Part shown: positions 3,267-44,782 of the stretch, piece by piece
Layout of the letters: each line of letters begins with the position of its first letter
Position numbering within the stretch: position 1 is the first letter of the stretch
IMG/VR virus record: IMGVR_UViG_3300037851_000542
Span: 64,001 to 128,000 of that record
Length of the DNA: 64,000 nt
From: a virus
Lineage: Duplodnaviria; Caudoviricetes
Reading direction: 5' to 3' (one strand)
Program-made: the position numbers and the translations under genes
Notes under the pieces: generated by a model
Told to the model about the DNA's origin: nothing
The model's input: only the letters and a program-made list of their open reading frames with translations
Database searches by the model: none

Positions 3267-3368
3267 ATGATGTATTTTGTTATAGGATTTGTTACAGGAC
3301 TTGTTTTTCATAAATATAAAGATAAGCTATTAACTAAAGCTATATCCTTTTTAAAAAAGGATGAATAA
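3267..3368 (+). CDS. 33-aa single-pass membrane peptide coupled to uS2
   Basis: Read by hand: MMYFVIGFVTGLVFHKYKDKLLTKAISFLKKDE*; its TAA (3366-3368) overlaps the uS2 ATG (3368). Too short for the ORF track. Confidence 0.6.
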   Translation: MMYFVIGFVTGLVFHKYKDKLLTKAISFLKKDE

Positions 3369-4297
3369 TGGAACTTAGCAATAGTAACGAAAACGAGAAT
3401 AAAATTAGTAATTTATCTGAAATACCAGTATTTGAGGTAGGATTTCAATCCCTATTGGACGCTAAAGCCTTTTATGGTACCTCGTGTGATGACTGGAATC
3501 CTAAAAGTGCCCCTTTTATCCTGTGTACAAAAACCAATAGACAGCCTAAAAGAAAGGGAAGATCAAAACATACTTATTTAATTGATTTAAGTATAACATT
3601 AAAGTCTTGGAACCGCGCCAAACAGTTTATTGAAAATACCGCATCTGCGGGTGGCAATTTTATGTTTGTAGGTACCCAACCAGAAGCAGGCAAGCTAATA
3701 CGAAGATGCGCTGAACAAGTGGAGGCGCTTCATGTGACAAAAAAGTGGAAGGGAGGAACTCTAACTAATTTAAAAATAACTCTAAACTCTATAAAAAGAT
3801 TAGCTAATCTAGAAAAACTTATTAAAAAACTAGACGATGCCGAAGCAGAAGGTACTTCAATCAATAAGAAAGAATTAAATTTATTAAAAAAAGAACAAAT
3901 TAAACTAGATGAACAGTATGGTGGAATAAGAAAGTTAAAAAAACTACCTAGTGCTTTAATAGTTTTTAACATGCTAGAACATAAAACAGCAATATATGAA
4001 GCTAAAAAATTAGGAATACCTGTTATTTGCGTATCTGATACTTTGGGTAATCCTGAACTCTCTGAATATTTTATAGCCTGTAATACTTCCTCTACCTCAG
4101 CTTTAAGACTCTTTATTATAAATATGTTTTCTGCTATTGAAACGGGATACAGAAAAAGAGACTTTAAACTATCCCAAGAAAATTTAATTAAAGAATTTGA
4201 TACCTTAGAAGAAGATACTAATATGGTAGTGAGTATTACAGCTACTGATATTCCAGTGGTGTACAAAAATAACAAAAACAGCTTGACTGTTAAGTAA
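3368..4297 (+). CDS. rpsB: 30S ribosomal protein uS2 homologue (divergent)
   Basis: Collinear uS2 motifs: LLDAKAFYG...WNPK, LIDL..T, GGNFMFVGT, KWKGGTLTN, IKRL..LE, KKE...L.KE..KL....GGI, LPSAL, AIYEAKKLGIPVI.VSDT..NP. Confidence 0.9.
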   Translation: MELSNSNENENKISNLSEIPVFEVGFQSLLDAKAFYGTSCDDWNPKSAPFILCTKTNRQPKRKGRSKHTYLIDLSITLKSWNRAKQFIENTASAGGNFMFVGTQPEAGKLIRRCAEQVEALHVTKKWKGGTLTNLKITLNSIKRLANLEKLIKKLDDAEAEGTSINKKELNLLKKEQIKLDEQYGGIRKLKKLPSALIVFNMLEHKTAIYEAKKLGIPVICVSDTLGNPELSEYFIACNTSSTSALRLFIINMFSAIETGYRKRDFKLSQENLIKEFDTLEEDTNMVVSITATDIPVVYKNNKNSLTVK

Positions 4298-4627: not shown

Positions 4628-4661
4628 TTTATACTATAGGAAGATTGACCTATAGTATAAA
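4628..4661. promoter_or_regulatory. 13-bp inverted repeat carrying the ATACTATA motif on both strands
   Basis: TTTATACTATAGG-aagattga-CCTATAGTATAAA, 20 nt upstream of the tail fibre start. Confidence 0.5.
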
Positions 4662-7555: not shown

Positions 7556-8230
7556 ATGATTAACATGTCTATATTATTACAAAAAATTATTCAATTATTT
7601 AAAACAGTTTTTAGTATTACCACTGCTGCTGATCAGGAAGATACTGTAGGAACTGAGCAAGTTGGCATAGATATGCAACTAATTTATGCTCAATTTCCTT
7701 ATGCTAAAAAAGAAGATATAGACTTAAACTACCCTCTTTTAGTTAAAGCATTAAATAAACATGGAATTTTTAGTAGAGAAATGCTTATTTATGCGTTAGC
7801 TACTGTATCTGTTGAAGTTCCTAAATTTAAACCAGTAAAAGAAATACCTTCAAAATACTCTACTAAAAATAAACTAAAACCGTATGATTTTTCAGGATAC
7901 GTTGGAAGAATGGGAAATAAGGATCTTGAAATGGCTACAAAATACTCAGGAAAAGGACTTATTCAACTTACCGGCTATAATAACTACTGTGATCTTGATA
8001 AAAAACTTTTATTAAATGGTGAGTTAGTACAAAATCCAGATTTAGCCTTGGACGCTAAAATCTCAGCAGAGGTGTTAGCTATATACTTTAAAGACAGAAT
8101 TGACAGGGTAAAACAGGCGCTAATTAATAAAGATTTTGCTGAGTTAAGAAAAATAGTAAATGGTGGTTTTCACGGTCTTGATAAATTTGTAGCAAAATTT
8201 AAAGAATTAGATCAAGTTTTTCCTAAATAG
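7556..8230 (+). CDS. glycoside hydrolase family 19 endolysin
   Basis: YALATVSVE..., MGN, YSGKGLIQLTG..NY, NPDL, IVNGG..GL motifs of GH19 phage lysins. Start may be the second ATG at 7565. Confidence 0.88.
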   Translation: MINMSILLQKIIQLFKTVFSITTAADQEDTVGTEQVGIDMQLIYAQFPYAKKEDIDLNYPLLVKALNKHGIFSREMLIYALATVSVEVPKFKPVKEIPSKYSTKNKLKPYDFSGYVGRMGNKDLEMATKYSGKGLIQLTGYNNYCDLDKKLLLNGELVQNPDLALDAKISAEVLAIYFKDRIDRVKQALINKDFAELRKIVNGGFHGLDKFVAKFKELDQVFPK

Positions 8231-8277: not shown

Positions 8278-8640
8278 ATGAGCTTTGACCAAATTCCTTA
8301 CAAATTTATTAAAGAATTAAACTCTTTAGAGGATTGTTTTACCAAGCAATGGGTCATTAATTTCTATAACCATATAAAAAAATTAAACCTTTTATGGGTC
8401 TCACCTCATATAACTTTCGACGAGGATAATAATTCTTGTTTAGAATGGTGGTACAATAATAGAAAAGTTACAATATACTTAGAGTTAGAAAATAAACAAA
8501 TTACTGTGTTATTTTATGAAGAACCTGACCAAGATGCTATTTTAAAGTTGGATAAAATTACTGATTTAGTTTTACCTTTAAGCAATTTACAAGAAGTTAC
8601 TAGGATATGGTGTTGGTTTACATGTAAGTATAGGATTTAA
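8278..8640 (+). CDS. hypothetical protein
   Basis: 120 aa ORF; no Shine-Dalgarno; a -10-like hexamer lies immediately upstream. Confidence 0.7.
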   Translation: MSFDQIPYKFIKELNSLEDCFTKQWVINFYNHIKKLNLLWVSPHITFDEDNNSCLEWWYNNRKVTIYLELENKQITVLFYEEPDQDAILKLDKITDLVLPLSNLQEVTRIWCWFTCKYRI

Positions 8641-8651
8641 ATATACTATAT
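8639..8651 (+). promoter_or_regulatory. candidate late-promoter motif AAATATACTATAT
   Basis: The 12-mer AATATACTATAT also occurs at 7546-7557 and on the minus strand at 56928-56939; the core ATACTATA also occurs at 4631 and 11428. Confidence 0.45.
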
Positions 8652-8685: not shown

Positions 8686-9363
8686 TTGATGTCTGTAGAC
8701 GACCGTGTAAATCTTCAAAAAGCTCTTTACACTATATCACATGAGTTTAAAAATGACATTATAACCCTGCAAGGTTTAATAACTATTCTTGCCCAAAAAT
8801 ATGAAAAAACCTGGGACGAAGACGATAAGGAAAATATAGACTTGTTATTTGAGTCTATTAAACACCAAGAATCATATATTCAAAGTTTGCTAGATTATTC
8901 TAGAGTCAATACTAGAGGCAGACCAAGCTCTATAAAGTCCATACAAGAGCTTATAGCCATAGCGTTAAAGTCTATAAACAACGAACAAGTTAAAATTGAA
9001 TGTAACTGTAATACTAAATTAAAGCTGGACAATGCTCAATTTACAAAAGCTCTAAGTTGTATAATTATTAACTCTATTCAGTACTCTAACTGTAACCCCG
9101 TTATTATTAACTTTAATTGTGATTCTAAAGAAAATGACTATATATTAAAAATTAAAGATAACGGTACTGGTATAGATGATAAGTTTAAAGATCAGATATT
9201 CTCTGTGTTCTCTCCTGGTAAGAATTCGGTATCAGGAATAGGTATGGGACTTGCCACGGTAAAAAAGATAGTAGAGAGGCAAGGAGGTTCTATTTCTTAT
9301 GATTTTAGTACCAAAGAGTTTATAATAATTTTACCAATTGCATTGTGTTACCAAGATGTCTAA
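8686..9363 (+). CDS. sensor-less histidine kinase (HisKA + HATPase_c)
   Basis: H-box SHEFKN, N-box IINSIQYS, G1 KDNGTGI, F-box IFSVF, G2 GIGMGLA. Confidence 0.88.
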   Translation: MMSVDDRVNLQKALYTISHEFKNDIITLQGLITILAQKYEKTWDEDDKENIDLLFESIKHQESYIQSLLDYSRVNTRGRPSSIKSIQELIAIALKSINNEQVKIECNCNTKLKLDNAQFTKALSCIIINSIQYSNCNPVIINFNCDSKENDYILKIKDNGTGIDDKFKDQIFSVFSPGKNSVSGIGMGLATVKKIVERQGGSISYDFSTKEFIIILPIALCYQDV

Positions 9364-9796
9364 TGATTTAATAAATATCTTAATGGTAGAAGACAGCAAA
9401 GCACATGTAAAGCTTACTCAAGAAGCTTTAAAAAGGGCTAAACTTATAGCTAATTTTTACTATGCTAAAGACGGAGAGGAAGCATTAAATTTTATTTATA
9501 AAAAAGGCAATTATTCAAATGCCCCTACACCAAATTTAATACTACTTGATTTAAAGTTACCTAAGTACAGTGGTAAAGAAATATTAAAAATACTAAAAGA
9601 GGATGAAGATTTAAAGTCTATACCTGTAATTATTTTAACTACTTCATCGGCTATACTAGACATAGACGAGTCTTATAAAAGCCACGCTAATAGTTATATT
9701 ATAAAACCTATATCTTTTGAAGGATTGATTCAAACCTTAATGGGTCTAAATAATTTCTGGTTTGTTTTATCTACAAAACCACCAGTTAATGATTAA
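9356..9796 (+). CDS. single-domain response regulator (Rcp1/CheY-like)
   Basis: ILMVEDS, DGEEAL, P.LILLDLKLP (phospho-Asp), IPVIILTTS, ANSYIIKP. Probable ATG at 9356 overlaps the upstream gene. Confidence 0.93.
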   Translation: MSNDLINILMVEDSKAHVKLTQEALKRAKLIANFYYAKDGEEALNFIYKKGNYSNAPTPNLILLDLKLPKYSGKEILKILKEDEDLKSIPVIILTTSSAILDIDESYKSHANSYIIKPISFEGLIQTLMGLNNFWFVLSTKPPVND

Positions 9797-10982
9797 TTAC
9801 ATAATATTTGTATCTTTACTATTATGCTTGCTGTCATACAGGTCAGGTTATAAAAAAGGACTAGACTTAAAAAATAAAACACTAAGTGAGAATCGTCTCT
9901 TAATAGAGGAATTGAATTTTAGGTTAAATTTAATCTTAAATGTTTCTAAAGTAGGTATATGGGTACTAGACATAAAAACCAGAGAATTAAATTGGAACAA
10001 GGAAATGTTTGCAATTTATGAACTAGACCCTAATGAATCCGCTTGTCAAAGTAGATGGTCAGCATCTCTTCTTCCTGATGATTTAGTATTAACATTAGCT
10101 CAGTTAGAAGACAGCATAGCTAATACAAAAGAATTCAATACTTCTTTTAGAATTGTTACAAAAACTGAAGGAATCAGGCATATAAAAGCAATTGGAAATT
10201 TTCTCATAGACGATGATGGACTAGCTTATAAAATGGTAGGTATCAACTACGACAATACAAGTGAAGAAGTATTTAAAAGTAATATTTTATCTTTAAACAG
10301 GGAACTTTTAGATTTTACCTCGATTTTGAGCCACGATCTTCAACAACCTACAACAATAGCTTCTATGTACTTGGATCTTTTGGGCGCTAAAAACCCATAT
10401 TTAGACCCAGACAGTCAGGAGTATTTTAATTATGTTAAAACTTCTTTGAACGAGATAAGTTGCATTTTAAAGGATCTAATAGATCTTATACGTGTAGATA
10501 ACTTAGAAAAAAACCAAGAAGTTAACAAGTCAGAATTATTAAATTTAATAAATTTTAAAGAGATCTTAGAATCTTTAAATTACAACAAGAATTTGATTGA
10601 AATAGTTCTACCCAAAGAAGATTGTTACTTAAGTATGTGCAATAGAGATATTAAATCTCTTTTTACTAACTTAATATCTAACGCTATAAAGTTTTCTGAC
10701 CATAATAGAAAAAACACAATAACAATTACCTCTGATTGTTTAGATAATGGTAAAGTTTTTACAGTATCAGATAAAGGCATAGGTATAGACTCTAGGCATT
10801 TAAATGAGGTAATTAAGCCTTTTTTTAGAGTATACAGTTCTGAGGACTATCCAGGTACAGGGTTAGGTTTAGCTTTATGTGATAAAATAGCAAAAAAATA
10901 CGGAGGTACCTTAAGAATTGAATCTAAATTAGGAGTAGGTACAGATATAATTATAAAATTTCCTTGTCAAGGTACTATATAG
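9789..10982 (+). CDS. membrane-anchored PAS-domain histidine kinase
   Basis: N-terminal TM segment, PAS/PAC (GIWVLDI...PDD...FRIV...GINYD), H-box SHDLQQP, NLISNAIKF, DKGIGI, GTGLGLA. Probable ATG at 9789 overlaps the RR stop. Confidence 0.92.
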   Translation: MINYIIFVSLLLCLLSYRSGYKKGLDLKNKTLSENRLLIEELNFRLNLILNVSKVGIWVLDIKTRELNWNKEMFAIYELDPNESACQSRWSASLLPDDLVLTLAQLEDSIANTKEFNTSFRIVTKTEGIRHIKAIGNFLIDDDGLAYKMVGINYDNTSEEVFKSNILSLNRELLDFTSILSHDLQQPTTIASMYLDLLGAKNPYLDPDSQEYFNYVKTSLNEISCILKDLIDLIRVDNLEKNQEVNKSELLNLINFKEILESLNYNKNLIEIVLPKEDCYLSMCNRDIKSLFTNLISNAIKFSDHNRKNTITITSDCLDNGKVFTVSDKGIGIDSRHLNEVIKPFFRVYSSEDYPGTGLGLALCDKIAKKYGGTLRIESKLGVGTDIIIKFPCQGTI

Positions 10983-10987
10983 AGATA

Positions 10988-11407
10988 ATGCCTAACTCTG
11001 ATTTAAACTCTAAAGATAAGATAGCACTAGCTCGATTAGAAGAGAAGTTTAAAAACCTATCTGAATCTCATAAAGATTTAAAAGAGAGGTATAAACTAAC
11101 TCAAGAAGATCTTATTAAGAAATCAGAAGAAATATCTGAGGCTCATATACAAAATAAACTTTTAGAAAAAGAATTAAAAAGAAATGTAGAGCTGCTGTAC
11201 AAAGATTTTGATGCATTTCTAGATAATATGCAGAAAATAGAGTTAAGTCATAACCTGTTTGAAAAAAAAGTAACAGAAGAACTAAAAACAATAAAAGAAA
11301 AGGGATCTGAAACATTTCTCCTATATGGAAAAATGGCTATGTATTTTATAGGCGGGGTTTTTGCAACAGTGTCTACATTTATAGGTATAGGTATTCTTAA
11401 ATTCTAG
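10988..11407 (+). CDS. coiled-coil protein with C-terminal TM helix (holin/XhlA-like)
   Basis: Long coiled coil plus hydrophobic C-terminus MAMYFIGGVFATVSTFIGIGILKF; lies in the lysis region. Probable start 10988. Confidence 0.55.
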   Translation: MPNSDLNSKDKIALARLEEKFKNLSESHKDLKERYKLTQEDLIKKSEEISEAHIQNKLLEKELKRNVELLYKDFDAFLDNMQKIELSHNLFEKKVTEELKTIKEKGSETFLLYGKMAMYFIGGVFATVSTFIGIGILKF

Positions 11408-11482: not shown

Positions 11483-13519
11483 ATGATTCAATTAAACCCT
11501 GTTTTAACCTCCCAGAATGGAAAGCTTTTAGTTGGGGATACCAATAGTACTGGAAAATTTACAAATTTAAGTTATTCAGAATCAGGTAGTAATTCTAACT
11601 TAATATCTTCTGGAACTTTTTTATTAGGTACCACAGGATCTAATGAGTTCAGAATACAAACTAATGGATCTTTAAAATGGTCTGTTGGGTCAAATGGTGC
11701 GCTTAGTGCTGCGGTCGCTGCCAATATAACGACTGGAGGTAGCGTTCAAAGTCCTACTTTAGAAAACATTGGATTCACAGACTTAAACTTAAACTCTAAT
11801 AATGCTGGTATAAAATTCTATACGTCCAACACTAGCCGTTGGGAAATGAGTAGCGCTGGTAATTTACTCCCTGCTACTTCTGGGACTTTAAATATTGGAT
11901 CTTCGTCTAATCCTATTCAAGTTATTACGGGTAACAATTTAAGTTCTTCTCCAGCACAGCAATTAAATCTTCAAATTGGTGGATCTACAAGGTGGATAGT
12001 AGAACCTAATAGCGGAAATCTTCAGCCCAATGGTGCTAATACTTACGGTATTGGAGGAGGATCAAGACCTTGTAATCAGGTGTGGACAAGAGTACTAACC
12101 TCTGATGCTGGGCAGAATCTAGTTTTAGCTGAAAACGGTGCTGCTAGGTGGACACTAGAGGCAGGTGGAAACAACTTAACTGCTGTCGGAGGGGCTGTAA
12201 TTAAATCTAGCAATAGTAATTTATCTTTACAAGGAAACTACTCATTTGGTTCTACAGGGGCTGCTATAGAACTTTTAAATAATGGACCTTTAAATTTAGT
12301 AGCTCAAGATGTAATCAGCATTTATAATGCGGGCGGGCTTAGATGGACTTTTAATACCTCTGGTGATATTGTACCTGCTAGTGGTTCTCAAAGTATTGGT
12401 ACAAATTCTTCTGCAATACTTTCAACTTATACTAGAAATGTATCCTCCGACGGCACTAATAATTTAAATTTACAAGTAGGAGGGAGCACAAAAGTATACA
12501 TAACTAATGCTGGAGATCTCATTGCAGGTGGAATTAGCACTACTTATTTAAATATAGATAACACTTTAACCTTAAACGATAATAATTTAACCTCAACTGG
12601 AGATTTAATTTTTAATAATGGGCAGTGGTTAAGATTATACGCTAGCGGTACAGAACGCTGGAGAATGTTTGGTAATGGAGAACTTTTAGCAGTACAAGAA
12701 TCTGTGAATCATTTTTTTGGTACTTTTAGCAATACGTCCTTATTCTTTAGAACAAACAATCAAAACAGGCTTTATTTAGAAGCAAACGCTAGTAACTTAG
12801 TAGGGGTAGGTTCTGTAGGTTTAGCTAGTAATGGTGGGGTAGTTACACTAGGATCAACAAATGATGGTAATCAGGATCCAAATAGCGCTACTATTATTAT
12901 AACTGGATTTGGAGGACCTTCTCCTAAAACTTTAGCTAGATTTACAAAAAATTCAATCAATCTTCAATGTCCTGATCGGGCTGGATTTAGCGGAGATCGC
13001 TTTTGGCTTAAAATTTATCACGGTGCTCAAGAGATGTGGGCATTTTATAACGCTATTGATGATTCATTAGCTGATGGAATGTTTGCCCCTCCGGTAACAA
13101 ACGCTTTTAATATTGGTCACCCTTCTCACAGAGTTAGAGATATACATACACAAGCAATAACAATATACTCTGACGAAAGAGGTAAAAATACAATACAACC
13201 TTCTACATTAGGGTTAGACTTTATTAATTCATTAAATCCAGTATCATATAAAATGAATGTTGGTAGGAATCAAACACTTGAAGAAGAAGATGGTACTCCT
13301 ATAATAGTGCCAATATCTGGAGTAAGAACACACTGGGGATTACTAGCCCAAGAAGTTAAAGCTGTAATTCCAAGTGGTGTAGATTTTGCGGGATGGGTAC
13401 TAGCAGATCTTGAAGACCCGGATAGTCAACAGTCTTTACGGTATTATCAATTTATTTGTCCTTTAATTAAAGCAATTCAGGAGCTGACCGCAAGAGTAGA
13501 GTCTTTAGAAAATCCTTAA
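11483..13519 (+). CDS. second tail fibre protein with C-terminal S74 chaperone domain
   Basis: Beta-repeat shaft sharing motifs with fibre 1; YSDERGKNTI...HWGLLAQEV...LRYYQFICPLIKAIQEL; GAGGT RBS. Confidence 0.88.
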   Translation: MIQLNPVLTSQNGKLLVGDTNSTGKFTNLSYSESGSNSNLISSGTFLLGTTGSNEFRIQTNGSLKWSVGSNGALSAAVAANITTGGSVQSPTLENIGFTDLNLNSNNAGIKFYTSNTSRWEMSSAGNLLPATSGTLNIGSSSNPIQVITGNNLSSSPAQQLNLQIGGSTRWIVEPNSGNLQPNGANTYGIGGGSRPCNQVWTRVLTSDAGQNLVLAENGAARWTLEAGGNNLTAVGGAVIKSSNSNLSLQGNYSFGSTGAAIELLNNGPLNLVAQDVISIYNAGGLRWTFNTSGDIVPASGSQSIGTNSSAILSTYTRNVSSDGTNNLNLQVGGSTKVYITNAGDLIAGGISTTYLNIDNTLTLNDNNLTSTGDLIFNNGQWLRLYASGTERWRMFGNGELLAVQESVNHFFGTFSNTSLFFRTNNQNRLYLEANASNLVGVGSVGLASNGGVVTLGSTNDGNQDPNSATIIITGFGGPSPKTLARFTKNSINLQCPDRAGFSGDRFWLKIYHGAQEMWAFYNAIDDSLADGMFAPPVTNAFNIGHPSHRVRDIHTQAITIYSDERGKNTIQPSTLGLDFINSLNPVSYKMNVGRNQTLEEEDGTPIIVPISGVRTHWGLLAQEVKAVIPSGVDFAGWVLADLEDPDSQQSLRYYQFICPLIKAIQELTARVESLENP

Positions 13520-13522
13520 CTT

Positions 13523-13903
13523 TTACCAAATCCCAGTATAGATTATTTTATACTGGGATTTAATAGAAGTTAGTGCAAAAGTTAAAACCTCAAATTCTTC
13601 TGATACAATATCGTCCGGCTCTATTTTAAATTTTGCTTTTACTTTAGTAATTTCAGTTAATCCCTCATCTACTCTACAAAAGCTTTTTAAATCGGAGTAA
13701 TTATTATAGTTATCTGGTATCCACAGTTGACCTTTTACAGTAGATATACCTAACCTTGTATAGCCGCTGTCATTACCTATATCCCACAAGGTTCCATCAA
13801 CTTCAGCATTCCAAGTTAGCACTCTAAATCCTGGAATTGCAGCCTCAGCAAGAGGATTTAAAGGTTTTGCTTTTAAGTTGTTATAAATAAAAAACAGATC
13901 CAT
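13523..13903 (-). CDS. hypothetical protein
   Basis: 126 aa ORF convergent with tail fibre 2. Confidence 0.65.
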   Translation of the reverse strand: MDLFFIYNNLKAKPLNPLAEAAIPGFRVLTWNAEVDGTLWDIGNDSGYTRLGISTVKGQLWIPDNYNNYSDLKSFCRVDEGLTEITKVKAKFKIEPDDIVSEEFEVLTFALTSIKSQYKIIYTGIW

Positions 13904-13906
13904 ATG

Positions 13907-14185
13907 CTATGTCAACATTTCTAGAGCAATACCACATATAACTTTATCCTCTGCATCAAATTTGGTAATTAGTTGCTTATTGTTAGTTAGATAAGCAGAT
14001 ATAAAGTTTATTAAATGATCTAATACTATCCTAGCTAATGCTTTTGTACTGGCTTTTAAATTAGCATTATTACCAAACTCAGAAATCCACAGCAAGACCA
14101 TATCTCGACGGGTTTCGAGTTCCTTTAACTTATCAAATCTAGCGGTCGTTAGAATCAATTCCATACTTATAATATAGTATGCCAT
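13907..14185 (-). CDS. hypothetical protein
   Basis: 92 aa helical ORF in tandem with 13523..13903. Confidence 0.65.
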   Translation of the reverse strand: MAYYIISMELILTTARFDKLKELETRRDMVLLWISEFGNNANLKASTKALARIVLDHLINFISAYLTNNKQLITKFDAEDKVICGIALEMLT

Positions 14186-14287: not shown

Positions 14288-15259
14288 GTGACAAAAGAAT
14301 ACAAATTTAAAAACTACTATGAATCTGAACCTCAAGTAGATAAAATACTTTATGACGAATCTAAAGAAAAAGTATTAAAAGCTTTTGCTAACATTAGTCA
14401 AACCTATGCAAGAAAACACGTTAGACCAGGTATTGACTATGAAGATCTGTATAATGAAGCCCAACTTGGAGTTTTAGAAGCTATTGAGTACTTTTCTGAT
14501 CCAAGTAAGGTAGAAAAAAAATATCCATTCAAGCAATATGTTCTTTACAAAATTAGGGAAAGAACTTATCAGTACTGCTTGCGTAATGCTATAAAAATAA
14601 AAACTCCTTATTATATTCAGCGCGGTTCAAAACATGTAGCTCAGATTACAACTTTATTAAAAAATGCTCCGGTTGCTTTTCAAATTCTTGGTAAAGAGGA
14701 CGTTAGTGATAGTGATATTAGAGAGTTTTTATATAATGAGAATGAAAGGTTACCTTTAAAATCTGATGAGTTTATTCGTGCTCAAATAAATAAAAATCTA
14801 ACTACAGATCAGTTTAATCAGGTTTATGATAACGTAGTAAATCATAAAAGAGGAAGTGCTCATTCTTTTGTAAAGAAAAACTTAACTGATGTTGGTAAAA
14901 TATTACATATAAAAGAAAAGATCTGGTATAATGCTACAAGTAACAATATGCCATTTAGTAGAGTAATATCTTTAATATTAGAGGCTCGTAGTGCCAGATC
15001 CAGCCACGATTCTGTTTTTTGTGGGACTATAAATGGGCTCTCAGAAAAAAATATTATTTTTGCAGAAATGGTAAAACGGGGCAGGGAAGTTTGTGGGACT
15101 AAAAATTTTGATATATTTTTATCAAATAAATACTTAAATAAAACCTATAAAGAAATCTCAGTACTTTATAACGTCCCTAAGAATGATATAACTGAAATTA
15201 TAAAAAGGTGTATAAAAAGTCTAAAAGAAGACGACATAATAAACGAATTTAACGATTAA
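14288..15259 (+). CDS. phage-encoded sigma70-family RNA polymerase sigma factor
   Basis: Region 2: EDLYNEAQLGVLEAIEYF.DP...PFKQYVLYKIR...IKTP; region 4 HTH: NKTYKEISVLYNVPKNDITEIIKRCIKSL; GAGGA RBS with GTG start. Confidence 0.82.
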   Translation: MTKEYKFKNYYESEPQVDKILYDESKEKVLKAFANISQTYARKHVRPGIDYEDLYNEAQLGVLEAIEYFSDPSKVEKKYPFKQYVLYKIRERTYQYCLRNAIKIKTPYYIQRGSKHVAQITTLLKNAPVAFQILGKEDVSDSDIREFLYNENERLPLKSDEFIRAQINKNLTTDQFNQVYDNVVNHKRGSAHSFVKKNLTDVGKILHIKEKIWYNATSNNMPFSRVISLILEARSARSSHDSVFCGTINGLSEKNIIFAEMVKRGREVCGTKNFDIFLSNKYLNKTYKEISVLYNVPKNDITEIIKRCIKSLKEDDIINEFND

Positions 15260-18633: not shown

Positions 18634-19760
18634 CGGCATCCATTATTTATTTTAGTAAATAATTTCCCCTGATGGGCTCTCATGCCCGAGAGCGAAAATA
18701 AGAATATTCTTTGCCGCGTTTACATCTCTTTGATGCTGACTTCCACAAGAGGAACACTCCCATTCTCTTACCCCTAACGCACTTAGTCCACTCGGTCCTG
18801 TTTTTTGAAGACAATGCGAGCAAGTTACGGTAGAGTATTTTTCGTTGGTTACTCGGAAGTCAATACCAAGCTTTAGAGCTTTATATGCAAGCATTGATTT
18901 AAATCGCCCCCAACTGGCGTCTAAAACGGACTTTGCCATTTTAGTTTTTACAAGTTTAAGGGCATTTACGTCTCCAACGAAAATTTGTTTATTCTCCTGC
19001 GCTAATTTAGTGGTAGCTTTATGCAGGAAATCTTTACGCACGTTCTTAATTTTGGCGTAGATTTTAGTGACTTGTTTTTTCTTTCTAGCTCTTTGGGCTT
19101 TAGCGAGTTTTTCTGCGTATTTTGACAAAACTTTGGGATTTTCTATTGTACTACCATCCGAGCATGTTGCTAAGGTCTTAAGACCTAGATCAATCCCTAT
19201 GACTCCTTGCCCTAAATGCTTAGCCTGAGGTTCAACTTCACAGTTTAGGTTTATGTACCATTTTCCCTCGGAGTCCTAATTAAAAGAGGCTGTCTTAAGT
19301 TTTCCTTGAACCTCTCTGGACTTCCAGAATTTAAATTTACGTTTAAGGTAAACTACCGAGTCACCTTTAAGTTGAATACCTTTTGAGTTAACAGGTATCC
19401 ATCCTAAGTTTCTTTTGTGACTTCTCCATCTTAACTTAGGCTTCTTTAAATTGTTTCTCTTAGCTATAAATTCTCTAGCTATCTCATTGATAGTAGTGGA
19501 GCTAAGTCCTAATTCTTTAGAAGATCCTACTGTTAGATAATTTAAATCGTATTCCGATATCCATCTTTTATTTCCACCTGCAGATCTTCGATCAGCGGAT
19601 TTTTTAGATACCTCATTGCAGTAATTCCATACAAAGTTCACTGATTTTGCCTTACAATTGAGCAGGTTTAAATGCGTAGAATCTTTTATTCGGAATTTGT
19701 AAGTAATCATTGCTTTCGCCATTCGGTTAGTTTATACTTTTTAAATGAAACTTTCAAGTT
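18634..19760 (-). mobile_element. tnpB-only IS200/IS605-type element (no tnpA); ends approximate
   Basis: tnpB with a 3' hairpin ATTATTTA-ctaaaa-TAAATAAT followed by GGATGCCG, at the position where the right-end hairpin and GGATGTCA-like motif usually lie. Left end not defined. Confidence 0.5.
18652..19722 (-). pseudogene. tnpB: IS200/IS605-family TnpB interrupted by one in-frame TAG
   Basis: ORFs 19276..19722 and 18652..19128 are in the same frame. Reading through TAG (19278-19276) gives SFN*DSEGKWYINL...GIDLGLK (RuvC-I), IFVGDV (RuvC-II), CSHC/CSSC zinc finger and RDVNAAKNI (RuvC-III); 356 codons in total. Confidence 0.9.
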
Positions 19761-42068: not shown

Positions 42069-43149
42069 ATTTAAACTTTGTATATGGATTGTTTAAGAAT
42101 TCTTTAATATTGATTAAAGTAGGATTATCTAGTAAACTTTCCAATTCTAAAAAAGGAGCTTCATCTGGATCTTTATCCGGTAATTCTGCATAGCTTACTG
42201 TAATTATACCAGACTTATCTAACTTTTCCAATGTTTTTATAAATCCTTGCCTTGCGGCGGCGCCCCTTTCTATAAGAAAAAACAGATCTAAGCTACAAGA
42301 AGCTGCTAATGTTATCTGTTTTTGACTTAAAGTATTTCCTAGGCAAGCTACTGAGTTAGTCCACCCATAGAAATTTAACCTTATACAACTAAACTCACCT
42401 TCTACTATTATTAGTGACCTTTTGCCGTTTTTTAAATCTACATTGTTTAAGTTAAACAAAGCATTTTCTTTTTTATAACCTGGTGTAATCCAATACTTTG
42501 GGCAGTCCCCGTATTGGAGTATGCCATCTAACCTACGTGCATTTACCCCCACCAGTGTCCCCTCCTTACTATAAGAAGGTATTCCTACTCTCAACTGTTT
42601 ATAACTATCTAAAAAAGGATAAAGATTATATTTACTTATGCTTTGAAGTCCTGGATAATTCCTTAATTGAATATATTTTTCTACGTATTCAAATCCTACT
42701 GGGTGATTATAAAAATTAGGAAACTCTTGTAAACCTGCAAGTTCTGCCACTCTAGCTCTATCTTGTTCTGCATTGGATTTAATTATAGATATTAACTTTT
42801 GATAATCTTCTAAGTTTGAAACTTGATCATCCTTTTCCAAGTTAAAATTGCACAATTCGGCTAATCTTTCTACTGCCTGGTTGAAACTACAATTAAGTTT
42901 TAATTTAATAAAACCATATACATCGTGGGCTTCATTTCCTCCACAACTCTTAGTAAAGCATTGCCACCCATCATACTTCTTACTCCAAGAAAAACCTTCT
43001 TTAGTGTCCCCTCCGTGAAGAGGGCAAGGGCACCTTACTTCAGTTTCCCTATTGCATATTTCAGAATAAGGAACTCCTCCAATACTTACAAGTACTTGTA
43101 CAGGATCTGCCAGTGCTTTAAGTGTGTCAATTGTTTGTTTGCTGTACAT
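42061..43149 (-). CDS. DnaG-type DNA primase
   Basis: CPCPLHGGD...WQCF..SC zinc-binding domain; TOPRIM IIVEGEF, ACLGN, DKDPDE. Confidence 0.88.
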   Translation of the reverse strand: MYSKQTIDTLKALADPVQVLVSIGGVPYSEICNRETEVRCPCPLHGGDTKEGFSWSKKYDGWQCFTKSCGGNEAHDVYGFIKLKLNCSFNQAVERLAELCNFNLEKDDQVSNLEDYQKLISIIKSNAEQDRARVAELAGLQEFPNFYNHPVGFEYVEKYIQLRNYPGLQSISKYNLYPFLDSYKQLRVGIPSYSKEGTLVGVNARRLDGILQYGDCPKYWITPGYKKENALFNLNNVDLKNGKRSLIIVEGEFSCIRLNFYGWTNSVACLGNTLSQKQITLAASCSLDLFFLIERGAAARQGFIKTLEKLDKSGIITVSYAELPDKDPDEAPFLELESLLDNPTLINIKEFLNNPYTKFKYD

Positions 43150-43159
43150 GACAATCTAG

Positions 43160-44782
43160 TTAAAATAGTGGATCTTCGTCTTCCTCAGGAGTAACTTGAG
43201 AAACATAGGTGGTAAGATCTTCTATATCTCTTTGGTTATTATTTGACAGCTTATCATTTTTAACCTTATTTATCCAGATATCATTACTACTGGAACTTCT
43301 TCCGTTTTTAGAAAGTGTATTTAGTTTATAATTTATTTTAGCTTTTCTGCCGTCTTCATTATCTTCATCCTCTTCTTGCTTTGTATCAGCCTCTATTGTT
43401 TTTAATATAGATTTATAAAAAGTTACTGGTATTCTTTTTGCAGAACCTCCTCCTCTGGACTCTTTAACAGTTAGCCAGTGGGTTCCGTATTTCTTAACAT
43501 CCTCTTCAAAAGTGTCGCTATCAATATCAAACTCTTTATCACTCTTAGGATCAAATCTTATCAAGGTATTACAGTATCTAATGAGCCTATCACTATCAGC
43601 CACATTGTTTGTTCTAGTATTTATTTGGCAACCTGTGACAACTGGTATATCTAAAGTTCCGGCTGATATTTTTAGTGCATTTGTTATATCTCCGAGTATT
43701 TGATCTTCTCTTATATCTTTACTATTTTCTGCTACTGTCTCCATTTTTATATAATCAAAAACAGCCAACCCTATACCATATTTTAATTTAGCTCTTCTAA
43801 TTCTATTGGTTATAATTTTAGAATTAAACTGAGGTAAGTACTCGTAATATAAATTAAATTCATTTTTAATTTTAAATATAGCAGCTTCAACCCTTTCTTG
43901 GTCCCTTTTATCTTCTTTAAACTTACCACTAATAATCGCACGCTCGTCTACTTCGCTAATTTGAGCAAGTAATCTGGAAAGATCCTCTTTATAACTCATT
44001 TCTGTACTAAGGTATAACACTGGAATTTTATGATGTTCTATAACATGTCTAGCTATGTTTAGCATTAAAGTAGATTTACCACCCTTTGGTGGACCTGCAA
44101 AAATAGTTAATGTTCCAGCCCTTAATCCATTTATTGCTTGATCTAAACTTTTAAATCCAGTTTCTAATCCTATTAGGTCATTACCTCTACTGTTTATTTC
44201 TTCTACAAAATCGTCAATTACTTCAGACATAGATACTGTTTCATCCCTATCCTGTCCAGCCTCAATTAGACTTAACTCGGCTAGAAACTTTTCTGTAAGC
44301 TCCTCACCATTAGGATTAGTACTCAGGTCCTGTCTGAATGAAAAAACCTCGTTTTGCATTCTAGACGCAGCAGTATAGAGTTTATACTTTTTATAGGAAT
44401 TTTTTAATTTATCAACATAAAAATCGTAATTAGATTCATCTGGTGATGTGGAGCTAATAATAATAAAATATTGGTCCAGTACTCCTGTAGATTCTATTCC
44501 CAAACTTTTGCTTGCTTGTATAAGCAGAGGTAAATCAATTTTTTCTACTTTTGGATCGTTTTGTAATAAACTCAAAGCTAAAAATACAATCTTATTATGT
44601 TGGGATAGAAAATATTCTTCAGTCACGTCCCCCATTAATTCCACTAACTTAGTCTCGCTATGAAAACAAATTGATAGTAATAGTCTTTCGTACTCAGTGG
44701 CAAAACTGTTACTAGAATGGTTAGTACTTTCAACGGAACTTAAGTTGGTGTTTGATTTTTTTGCCAGAGTTTTATACATCAA
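43160..44782 (-). CDS. DnaB-like replicative helicase
   Basis: GLETGFKSLDQAINGL, GPPKGGKST, YLSTEM, AVFDYI, GCQIN. Confidence 0.92.
   Translation of the reverse strand: MMYKTLAKKSNTNLSSVESTNHSSNSFATEYERLLLSICFHSETKLVELMGDVTEEYFLSQHNKIVFLALSLLQNDPKVEKIDLPLLIQASKSLGIESTGVLDQYFIIISSTSPDESNYDFYVDKLKNSYKKYKLYTAASRMQNEVFSFRQDLSTNPNGEELTEKFLAELSLIEAGQDRDETVSMSEVIDDFVEEINSRGNDLIGLETGFKSLDQAINGLRAGTLTIFAGPPKGGKSTLMLNIARHVIEHHKIPVLYLSTEMSYKEDLSRLLAQISEVDERAIISGKFKEDKRDQERVEAAIFKIKNEFNLYYEYLPQFNSKIITNRIRRAKLKYGIGLAVFDYIKMETVAENSKDIREDQILGDITNALKISAGTLDIPVVTGCQINTRTNNVADSDRLIRYCNTLIRFDPKSDKEFDIDSDTFEEDVKKYGTHWLTVKESRGGGSAKRIPVTFYKSILKTIEADTKQEEDEDNEDGRKAKINYKLNTLSKNGRSSSSNDIWINKVKNDKLSNNNQRDIEDLTTYVSQVTPEEDEDPLF

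Follow-up and report, generated by a model that had tools for sequence, protein, structure and literature searches.

According to the usual view, phages learn about the state of the infected cell via host pathways or via small peptide or quorum signals. Among the described signalling systems, two cellular circuits are among the closest to the one treated here, namely the Cph1/Rcp1 photoreceptor system, with a type of receiver whose output is poorly known, and the DivJ/PleC-DivK circuit of Caulobacter, in which two HisKA kinases are combined with one output-less receiver that acts by protein contact. The system in question is a cassette of three genes, HK1, RR and HK2, coding for two histidine kinases and one stand-alone receiver. 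It occupies positions 8689-10982 of a 64,000-nucleotide stretch of phage DNA (the window), which comprises bases 64001-128000 of the 259,994-bp IMG/VR virus record IMGVR_UViG_3300037851_000542 (completeness 95% according to CheckV). The cassette is viewed here as a functional, phage-owned two-component module inherited within a phage clade, in which two kinases would act on one receiver with a late membrane-linked event as candidate output; belief and doubt in this reading as a whole are about evenly balanced, while the module itself is very probably functional in the biochemical sense.

With the Cph1/Rcp1 system, the cassette shares a receiver that matches Rcp1, RcpA and RcpB over its full length, including the C-terminal FW segment, an RR gene that overlaps a kinase gene, and an H-box of the HDLxQP type in HK2. 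It differs by the absence of a PAS-GAF-PHY module, by the presence of two kinases, one of them sensor-less, and by being phage-borne. The resemblance, to which an earlier sequence-only reading of the window had drawn attention, holds for the receiver (1I3C, E=4e-32) and for the wording of the H-box; since a phytochrome/GAF module is absent, the analogy is limited to these two elements. A Cph1- or bacteriophytochrome-like photoreceptor was ruled out for the same lack of PAS-GAF-PHY, PAS_3 being all that HK2 contains in this respect, and bacteriophytochrome kinases match HK2 over the kinase core only (E about 1e-10). With the Caulobacter circuit, the number and kind of components are shared; DivK is a detectable relative of RR (1M5T, E=2e-12), and an HK1 from the related locus L102, which has lost its phospho-His, recalls DivL. 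This likeness is an analogy of circuit design only, orthology being absent, and the kinase and phosphatase roles on the phage side are putative.

On the viral side, the agr cassette (AgrB/AgrD/AgrC) of phage phiCDHM1 includes a phage-borne histidine kinase thought to provide signalling input (PMC3901668). That set is a peptide quorum-sensing system of recent host origin and contains no response regulator, whereas the cassette of the window is complete, old and devoid of a close host counterpart. A role in timing virus activation has been proposed for the two-component sensors of the Ectocarpus virus EsV-1 (PMC12993054). These belong to a giant virus of eukaryotes and are hybrid histidine kinases, in contrast to the separate kinase and receiver genes of the phage. 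In a survey of 224 jumbo phages (PMC7824862), discussion is confined to a divergent receiver that is not part of a histidine-kinase system. The singularity claimed for the cassette in the earlier reading turned out to be weaker than stated, for the Microcoleus phage My-WqHQDG (OR578706.1, L106) has, between its primase and PIF1 helicase genes, those for a PAS kinase and, after it, two stand-alone receivers, and on six IMG/VR contigs (L107-L112, 39-348 kb; L110 and L111 of about 345 kb with 22.7% GC) a kinase gene lies directly upstream of an Rcp1-like receiver that is 37-47% identical to RR. These other large-phage pairs have one kinase each and lie among replication genes or ORFans; neither an endolysin nor a homologue of TMCC, the small membrane protein encoded downstream of HK2, was found near the six IMG/VR pairs, and a literature search yielded no paper describing the Microcoleus or IMG/VR pairs. 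Such pairs, recurring in unrelated large phage contigs, suggest that phage sensory genes form a broader class that has barely been described, and phage-borne kinase-receiver pairs are thus recurrent yet hardly described. What is new here is the two-kinase layout, the fixed position between endolysin and TMCC, and a series of natural variants. The 103-kb record MW462191 ('Bacteriophage sp.', L105) was considered as a further precedent for a phage kinase and rejected, since the neighbouring genes look chromosomal. In MW462191.1, the PleC-like kinase is flanked by aminopeptidase N, glutamine-synthetase adenylyl-L-tyrosine phosphorylase (as annotated), HigB and ParS/CprR.

Architecture of the kinase-receiver-kinase cassette

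8689..9363, plus strand: HK1, a soluble, sensor-less class I histidine kinase of 224 amino acids with DHp and CA domains (Pfam, HK853 alignment)
9356..9796, plus strand: RR, a stand-alone Rcp1-type receiver of 146 amino acids (Pfam Response_reg only, E=1.4e-17)
9789..10982, plus strand: HK2, a membrane-anchored PAS histidine kinase of 397 amino acids (Pfam, HK853 alignment, hydropathy)

The gene starts are the ATGs at 8689, 9356 and 9789 of public gene calls; longer open reading frames (ORFs) open at 8686, 9338 and 9762. With these starts, both the HK1-RR and the RR-HK2 junction are 8-nt overlaps of the form ATGnnTAA. Pfam domain scores were counted only above the gathering thresholds, which all cassette matches pass, so that the three domain sets proposed from sequence alone, a sensor-less kinase, a receiver and a transmembrane (TM) PAS kinase, were borne out. 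In a genome-wide search, the cassette accounts for the sole HATPase_c and REC matches of the 260-kb genome. Its GC content of 0.29-0.30 is the same as that of the flanking phage DNA, in keeping with the phage-like AT-richness noticed earlier.

HK1 contains HisKA (E=1.4e-7) and HATPase_c (E=1.1e-13) and no sensor domain; about ten residues precede the DHp helix, and hydropathy indicates zero TM segments. Its key residues are H18 (nt 8740-8742), N128, D157xGxG and G183xGxG. HK2 starts with one N-terminal TM segment (hydropathy), followed by PAS_3 (E=4.2e-11), HisKA (8.5e-8) and HATPase_c (1.5e-23). In alignments with HK853, whose phospho-His falls on H18 of HK1 and H182 of HK2, the N, G1, F and G2 ATP-binding boxes and ATP-lid motifs were found intact in both proteins, as had been read from the bare sequence, and the HATPase_c scores of 52 bits (HK1) and 84 bits (HK2) lie above the cut-off of 26.4. 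With the H-box His and the ATP-binding boxes of that class present in each, HK1 and HK2 are, by domain and motif, class I (HisKA) histidine kinases. A Spo0B/ChpT-type histidine phosphotransferase was ruled out for HK1 in view of its intact, invariant N, G1 and G2 boxes, and an identity of 23% rules out that HK1 and HK2 are recent duplicates. Since no NCBIfam equivalog reaches its cut-off for the cassette proteins, names such as PhoR or AtoS cannot be given.

The two kinases differ at the position that follows the phospho-His by four. HK1 has the motif H-E-x-x-N, the Asn being invariant in its orthologues; all HK2 orthologues have Gln there. Willett and Kirby, in 2012, are said to have established E/DxxT/N as the HisKA phosphatase motif. 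The DHp specificity residues of HK1 and HK2 also differ in a by-eye comparison of few sequences.

RR is, by its sequence matches, an Rcp1-type stand-alone receiver: Pfam finds a single REC domain and no output domain, and the PDB matches comprise, in this order, 5te9 (E=2e-37), Rcp1 itself (1i3c, 4e-32), 1jlk, 1k68, 5ic5 and 1k66, including RcpA, RcpB and bacteriophytochrome receivers. Many of its cellular homologues carry the JGI name Rcp1. The residues E12/D13, D65, T95/T96 and K117 are all present, align with those of Rcp1 and are invariant in four phage orthologues, which upholds the earlier statement that Asp, Thr and Lys of the receiver are intact.

Inheritance and natural variants in related phages

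Two other runs (independent Logan assemblies) yielded contigs, of 97.9 kb and 11.2 kb, with the same proteins in the same gene order, so that the check for a chimera or an integrated host segment, which the sequence-only reading had named as a possible refutation, fails to refute it. The locus is carried by only two freshwater DNA metagenome runs, which are possibly the record's own source; no RNA run was listed among the carriers. More distant relatives are found in L006 (29.6-kb contig) and L007 (21.6-kb contig), with receivers 59-61% identical over the whole alignment. Both are collinear with the genome, with uS2, fibre, SSB, endolysin, HK1, RR, HK2 and TMCC in this order at 33-63% amino acid identity; from endolysin to TMCC the identity is 40-63%. 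Together with loci that show parts of this order, at least four diverged relatives of 40-83% amino acid identity bear it out. The uS2 gene of the window (3368-4297; phage ribosomal protein uS2, Pfam Ribosomal_S2 in precomputed gene calls) has counterparts of 46% identity at the matching relative position in L006 and L007. A word-based protein search yielded an HK2 relative of 70% identity (L005) and HK1 relatives of 82% identity (L008 and L009); the cassette order is partially seen in these three loci and in L103, which runs from the HK2 C-terminus through TMCC into the start of a fibre gene. The second refuting outcome named earlier, a lack of synteny in relatives, was therefore likewise not observed. 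An IMG/VR search for related loci with an HK2, RR or endolysin profile gave no close relatives, and a metagenome scan with an HK1 profile gave a single unrelated match of 30% identity (L101).

The catalytic motifs are invariant across the lineages that carry RR, those of HK1 across four orthologues. Compared with the nearest relative, dN/dS is 0.10 for HK1 (vs L008) and 0.05 for TMCC; for HK2, dS is saturated, with dN at 0.22. When placed in a tree together with 75 Rcp1-like receivers of cellular origin, the four phage sequences fall into a single group (SH-aLRT 94); they are 57-61% identical to one another as against no more than 54% to any cellular receiver. The best cellular relatives, spread over many phyla, are 50-54% identical for RR and 25-35% for HK2, and for HK1 almost none are detectable in the word-based search. 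Conservation, selection, monophyly of the receivers and the distance of cellular relatives together argue that the cassette is old in the phage clade and is not a fresh capture. By these comparisons, its inheritance is vertical, inside a small clade of jumbo phages from fresh water, with purifying selection on HK1 and TMCC.

Two related loci contain the cassette in altered form. In L102, SSB, endolysin, an HK1-like gene and TMCC follow each other in this order, the gaps between endolysin, HK1 and TMCC being 4 and 2 nt; RR and HK2 are absent. The HK1 of this locus (L102:2758-3453), 44% identical to the window copy, has its phospho-His replaced by Glu (LSEEL vs ISHEF), with the N, G1 and G2 boxes intact. 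The joint loss of the His and of the receiver fits a His-Asp transfer from HK1 to RR where both are present. In L104 (3540-3948), residues 5-81 of HK1 are frameshifted and fused to residues 333-392 of HK2; RR is absent, and a full-length, uninterrupted TMCC ORF comes next. Upstream of it, nothing matches the window genome.

Variation also concerns the sensory side. HK2 of L006 and L007 has two TM segments and two PAS domains, so that HK2 of the window has lost about 130 amino acids including the first PAS domain. In L006, a short BLUF protein of 143 amino acids (L006:8786-9217, minus strand; E=1.1e-24) is encoded divergently next to HK1. It keeps the flavin-site Tyr, Gln and Trp/Met and matches PixD/Slr1694 and Tll0078. 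Through this protein, which adjoins HK1-RR-HK2, L006 resembles the PixD-PixE system of Synechocystis, in which the short BLUF protein PixD binds the receiver protein PixE; an interaction of this kind in L006 would be putative, and a BLUF gene is missing from the window genome. To judge from gene content, the clade repeatedly gains sensory inputs. Two viral scaffolds, 270 and 496 kb long, are also reported to carry BLUF genes (Rahlff et al. 2023; PMC10564846). Elsewhere on its contig, L007 has a gene cut by the locus end (L007:1-266, minus strand) that codes for a 322-amino acid kinase with an ETR1_N domain (E=8e-22), that is, an ethylene-receptor-type N-terminus, and HATPase_c. Neither BLUF nor ETR1_N was found in a search of the window genome.

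Genomic setting, promoter-like motif and putative host

7556..8230, plus strand: endolysin with a GH19-like lysozyme fold (phrog_181, E=6.9e-25)
8278..8640, plus strand: lineage-specific ORF of 120 amino acids between endolysin and HK1
8643..8650, plus strand: promoter-like 8-mer ATACTATA, 38 nt before the HK1 start
10973..10979, plus strand: TACTATA, one base shorter than ATACTATA; it overlaps the HK2 end and precedes the start of TMCC by 8 nt
10988..11407, plus strand: TMCC, 139 amino acids, with a coiled coil in the cytoplasm on its N-terminal side and a TM anchor at its C-terminus
11483..13519, plus strand: tail fibre 2 with a Peptidase_S74 chaperone domain (PF13884, E=2.3e-11), the downstream border

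The neighbourhood of the cassette comprises an SSB gene, the endolysin gene and two genes for tail fibres that contain Peptidase_S74 chaperone domains. The endolysin has orthologues of 50-58% identity in L006, L007 and L102, and a profile of the three orthologues matches the solved phage endolysins 9ms7 (E=5.8e-14) and 4ok7 (E=4.7e-12). The three overlapping genes were placed correctly by the sequence-only reading, which had not taken into account that the 120-amino acid ORF separates them from the endolysin. This ORF has no Pfam, PHROG or NCBIfam match and no homologue in the relatives; in L006 its slot is taken by the BLUF gene on the opposite strand, and its AlphaFold model (pLDDT 42) is unusable.

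The product of 10988-11407 had been labelled holin-like. Family searches lend this label no support: the protein, a C-terminally anchored coiled-coil protein, matches no holin family. About 115 conserved coiled-coil residues are followed by one TM segment at the extreme C-terminus (hydropathy), a topology that places the coiled coil in the cytoplasm; the C-terminal TM segment is present in all homologues, and the protein measures 134-139 amino acids across the relatives. A profile search of 1.8 billion representative proteins returned 11 matches in all, and a tblastn search against 50,697 phage records returned zero. Most look-alikes proposed by a language model (Atlas) are hypothetical proteins of viruses, comparable in size; XhlA (Atlas rank 71), DUF2951 and DUF7201 were weak leads that neither Pfam nor tblastn confirmed. 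TMCC comes after HK2 in five lineages, after the His-less HK1 in L102 and after the decayed cassette in L104, and it lies downstream of the endolysin in every relative whose contig includes the endolysin region. Its retention in L102 and L104 despite reduction or decay of the cassette marks TMCC as the stable element and the signalling genes as accessories that can be trimmed or lost. In the region 6.9-14.4 kb, no credible membrane protein other than HK2 and TMCC is encoded; of the spanins that go with endolysin and holin in a canonical Gram-negative lysis cassette, no trace in the form of a lipobox or a spanin-like ORF was found there. A complex prediction of RR with residues 1-115 of TMCC scored 0.00, which counts neither for nor against an interaction. 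In L005, a relative of 70-83% identity, tail fibre 2 is missing at this position (L005:1220-1281), and TMCC is followed directly by homologues of 13523-14185, which indicates an indel of the whole fibre gene.

The motif ATACTATA is found in front of HK1, as the earlier reading had claimed, and in the window also at 4631 (fibre 1), 7549 (endolysin) and 11428 (fibre 2), all on the plus strand. It precedes the starts of fibre 1, HK1 and fibre 2 by 38-47 nt and abuts that of the endolysin. Its total in the window is at chance level (12 vs 9.2 ± 2.9), but its placement is not: genome-wide, 16 of the 36 copies lie at most 70 nt upstream of a gene start on the same strand, as against 2.2 in random trials (maximum 7 in 2000 trials). 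The copy upstream of HK1 is kept in L008, L009 and L006, and L005, L006 and L007 have a full motif whose distance from the TMCC start is 8-9 nt, in coding and non-coding DNA alike. From placement and conservation of the motif, cassette and TMCC appear to share a promoter class with the fibres and the endolysin, and TMCC would be separately transcribable. At the endolysin, and at TMCC of the relatives, the distance between motif and ATG is so short that transcripts would have no leader, or almost none. Scans for sigma-70 promoters and terminators stayed at chance level. A sigma-70-family protein (Sigma70_r2, E=3e-4; TIGR02937, E=1.6e-9; both below cut-off) is encoded at 14288-15259; L005 and L006 keep it a short way downstream of the cassette region, and it is a candidate reader of phage promoters.

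The window, with a GC content of about 33%, contains genes for UvsX-like, DnaB-like and PolA-like replication proteins farther along. A nucleotide search against the 50,697 phage records gave zero matches, and the phage DNA polymerase is at most 26% identical to those of crAss-like and Thermus phages, so that no close known phage exists. No tRNA was found in a scan of the window, and a PADLOC scan gave nothing meaningful. A 158-amino acid ORF at 18652-19128 (minus strand) with OrfB_IS605 and Cas12f-like TNB Pfam matches (precomputed gene calls) represents a TnpB-like fragment.

A hint to the host comes from the phage RF1 gene, located outside the window at genome positions 42822-43907 (L010:823-1905; GC 46%). 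It is 89% identical at the protein and 84.5% at the DNA level to prfA of a Lake Mendota Bdellovibrionota metagenome-assembled genome (MAG; JBIIDM01). The similarity stops at the gene edges, with groES beside prfA in the MAG, and the next-best matches (56-63%) are mostly from Bdellovibrionota as well. By these comparisons the gene looks like a recent capture, and the RF1 matches make a member of the Bdellovibrionota the likely host, a group that is not known to have any jumbo phage. Recent capture of the cassette from this putative host was ruled out, the best match of the MAG to the phage receiver being 32% identical.

Proposed signalling route and competing explanations

The route proposed here builds on what is observed, that is, gene content, intact motifs, conservation, selection and synteny, and assigns putative kinase and phosphatase roles, a putative signal and a putative output. 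Both class I kinases, HK1 and HK2, would act on the single Rcp1-type receiver. HK2, held in the membrane with its PAS domain in the cytoplasm, would give the signal-dependent input; HK1, soluble and sensor-less and equipped with the H-E-x-x-N motif, would provide a constitutive kinase/phosphatase counter-activity. As the receiver has no output domain, its phosphorylated form would have to work through protein contact. The cassette genes would be driven by the promoter-like motif that also precedes the tail fibres and the endolysin. This shared motif and the conserved position between endolysin and TMCC make a late membrane-linked event, for example lysis timing, the leading candidate output, with TMCC as the first partner in line. 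The route is also favoured by HK2 and TMCC being the sole membrane proteins in the region 6.9-14.4 kb and by the photoactive-looking BLUF gene beside the cassette of L006. These phages probably sense something inside the cell. Lysis timing as the main output of the module is nevertheless considered unlikely.

Several observations weigh against this route. The cassette is dispensable, being reduced in L102 and decayed in L104 with TMCC kept in both, and the window lineage has lost one of the two PAS domains of HK2. TMCC matches no Pfam, PHROG or NCBIfam family, including any holin or lysis family. Having its own promoter-like motif, it can probably be transcribed independently, and since it also persists where the cassette is reduced or decayed, the adjacency of the two may reflect a mere insertion site with no functional link. 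The kinase-receiver pairs of other large phages do not lie beside lysis genes. Finally, the Gln at His+4 of HK2 might still allow phosphatase activity, which would blur the division of labour between the two kinases.

The main rival is an action on host signalling. In this case the phage kinases, the receiver or both would mainly take over host circuits, and the proximity of the endolysin would be incidental: HK1 or HK2 could phosphorylate or dephosphorylate host response regulators, or the receiver could serve as a phosphate sink for host kinases or bind to targets in the host, with motility, cell cycle or predatory cycle of the Bdellovibrionota host as possible targets. Such a takeover would agree with a receiver that has no output domain in a phage that has no DNA-binding regulator, with a sensor-less HK1 that could be constitutively active, with the non-lysis contexts of the pairs in other large phages, and with L102, which keeps an HK1-like protein with no phage receiver nearby. 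A parallel is seen in AgrC of phiCDHM1, which has no regulator of its own and is thought to signal via the host AgrA (PMC3901668). The same L102 protein, however, has lost its phospho-His, so that the usual phosphorylation of a host regulator would be impossible for it, and a complete kinase-receiver set under purifying selection would be needless for a pure hijacker. Moreover, the best receiver of the host MAG is distant, and the nearest cellular receivers (50-54%) come from unrelated phyla, hence there is no sign of mimicry of a host pathway. Takeover is for these reasons possible but on balance doubtful.

Lower in rank is the idea that HK1 and TMCC form the core pair, HK1 serving mainly TMCC, as its GHKL ATP-binding partner or its pseudokinase, and RR and HK2 being a later regulatory add-on of some lineages only. 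DivL and the anti-sigma kinases are known to function without phosphorylation of a His, TMCC always comes right after a kinase gene, and the tight operon of L102, with endolysin, HK1 (H to E; ATP boxes intact) and TMCC and with no RR or HK2, would be just such a pair. The phospho-His is, however, invariant in all four RR-bearing lineages, and L104 keeps TMCC after the CA domain of HK1 has gone, hence TMCC does not need HK1. Besides, at 44% identity the L102 protein is as diverged as those of relatives with the full cassette, which favours a secondary loss of RR and HK2 over a primitive state. This arrangement is deemed quite improbable.

Decay in L104, reduction in L102 and loss of a PAS domain in the window lineage might also be expected of a neutral passenger, that is, a bacterial operon acquired by the phage and decaying with no role in infection. 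Such a passenger is highly improbable given that all catalytic motifs are kept at 40-45% identity between lineages, that dN/dS is about 0.1, that the base composition is fully phage-adapted and that no close cellular donor was found. An artefact, be it an assembly chimera or host DNA misjoined to a phage contig, was prompted solely by the fact that two-component genes are typical of cells, found no support and has a negligible likelihood in view of the repeated gene order on the contigs of two other runs, the synteny in diverged relatives from other samples, the phage genes (fibres, SSB, endolysin) on both sides and the matching GC content.

If the proposed route is followed to its furthest consequence, a clade of freshwater jumbo phages of Bdellovibrionota would time a late membrane event, most simply lysis, by a phosphorelay of its own. 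Inputs to such a gated release would be the PAS kinase everywhere and, in some relatives, a BLUF blue-light sensor or an ethylene-receptor-type kinase, while the stand-alone receiver would deliver the output via the conserved TMCC. This extended scenario is likewise considered unlikely. If it were true, the phages would control their release by a sensor of environment or physiology that the virus itself encodes, a mechanism unlike holin clocks, T4 lysis inhibition, arbitrium or quorum-sensing eavesdropping. Natural mutants are at hand in the form of the full cassette, a His-less kinase with no receiver, a decayed remnant and a BLUF addition. Against the usual view of how phages read the state of the cell, the point of interest here is a complete kinase-receiver-kinase set that is conserved under selection and located in a late-gene region beside the endolysin.

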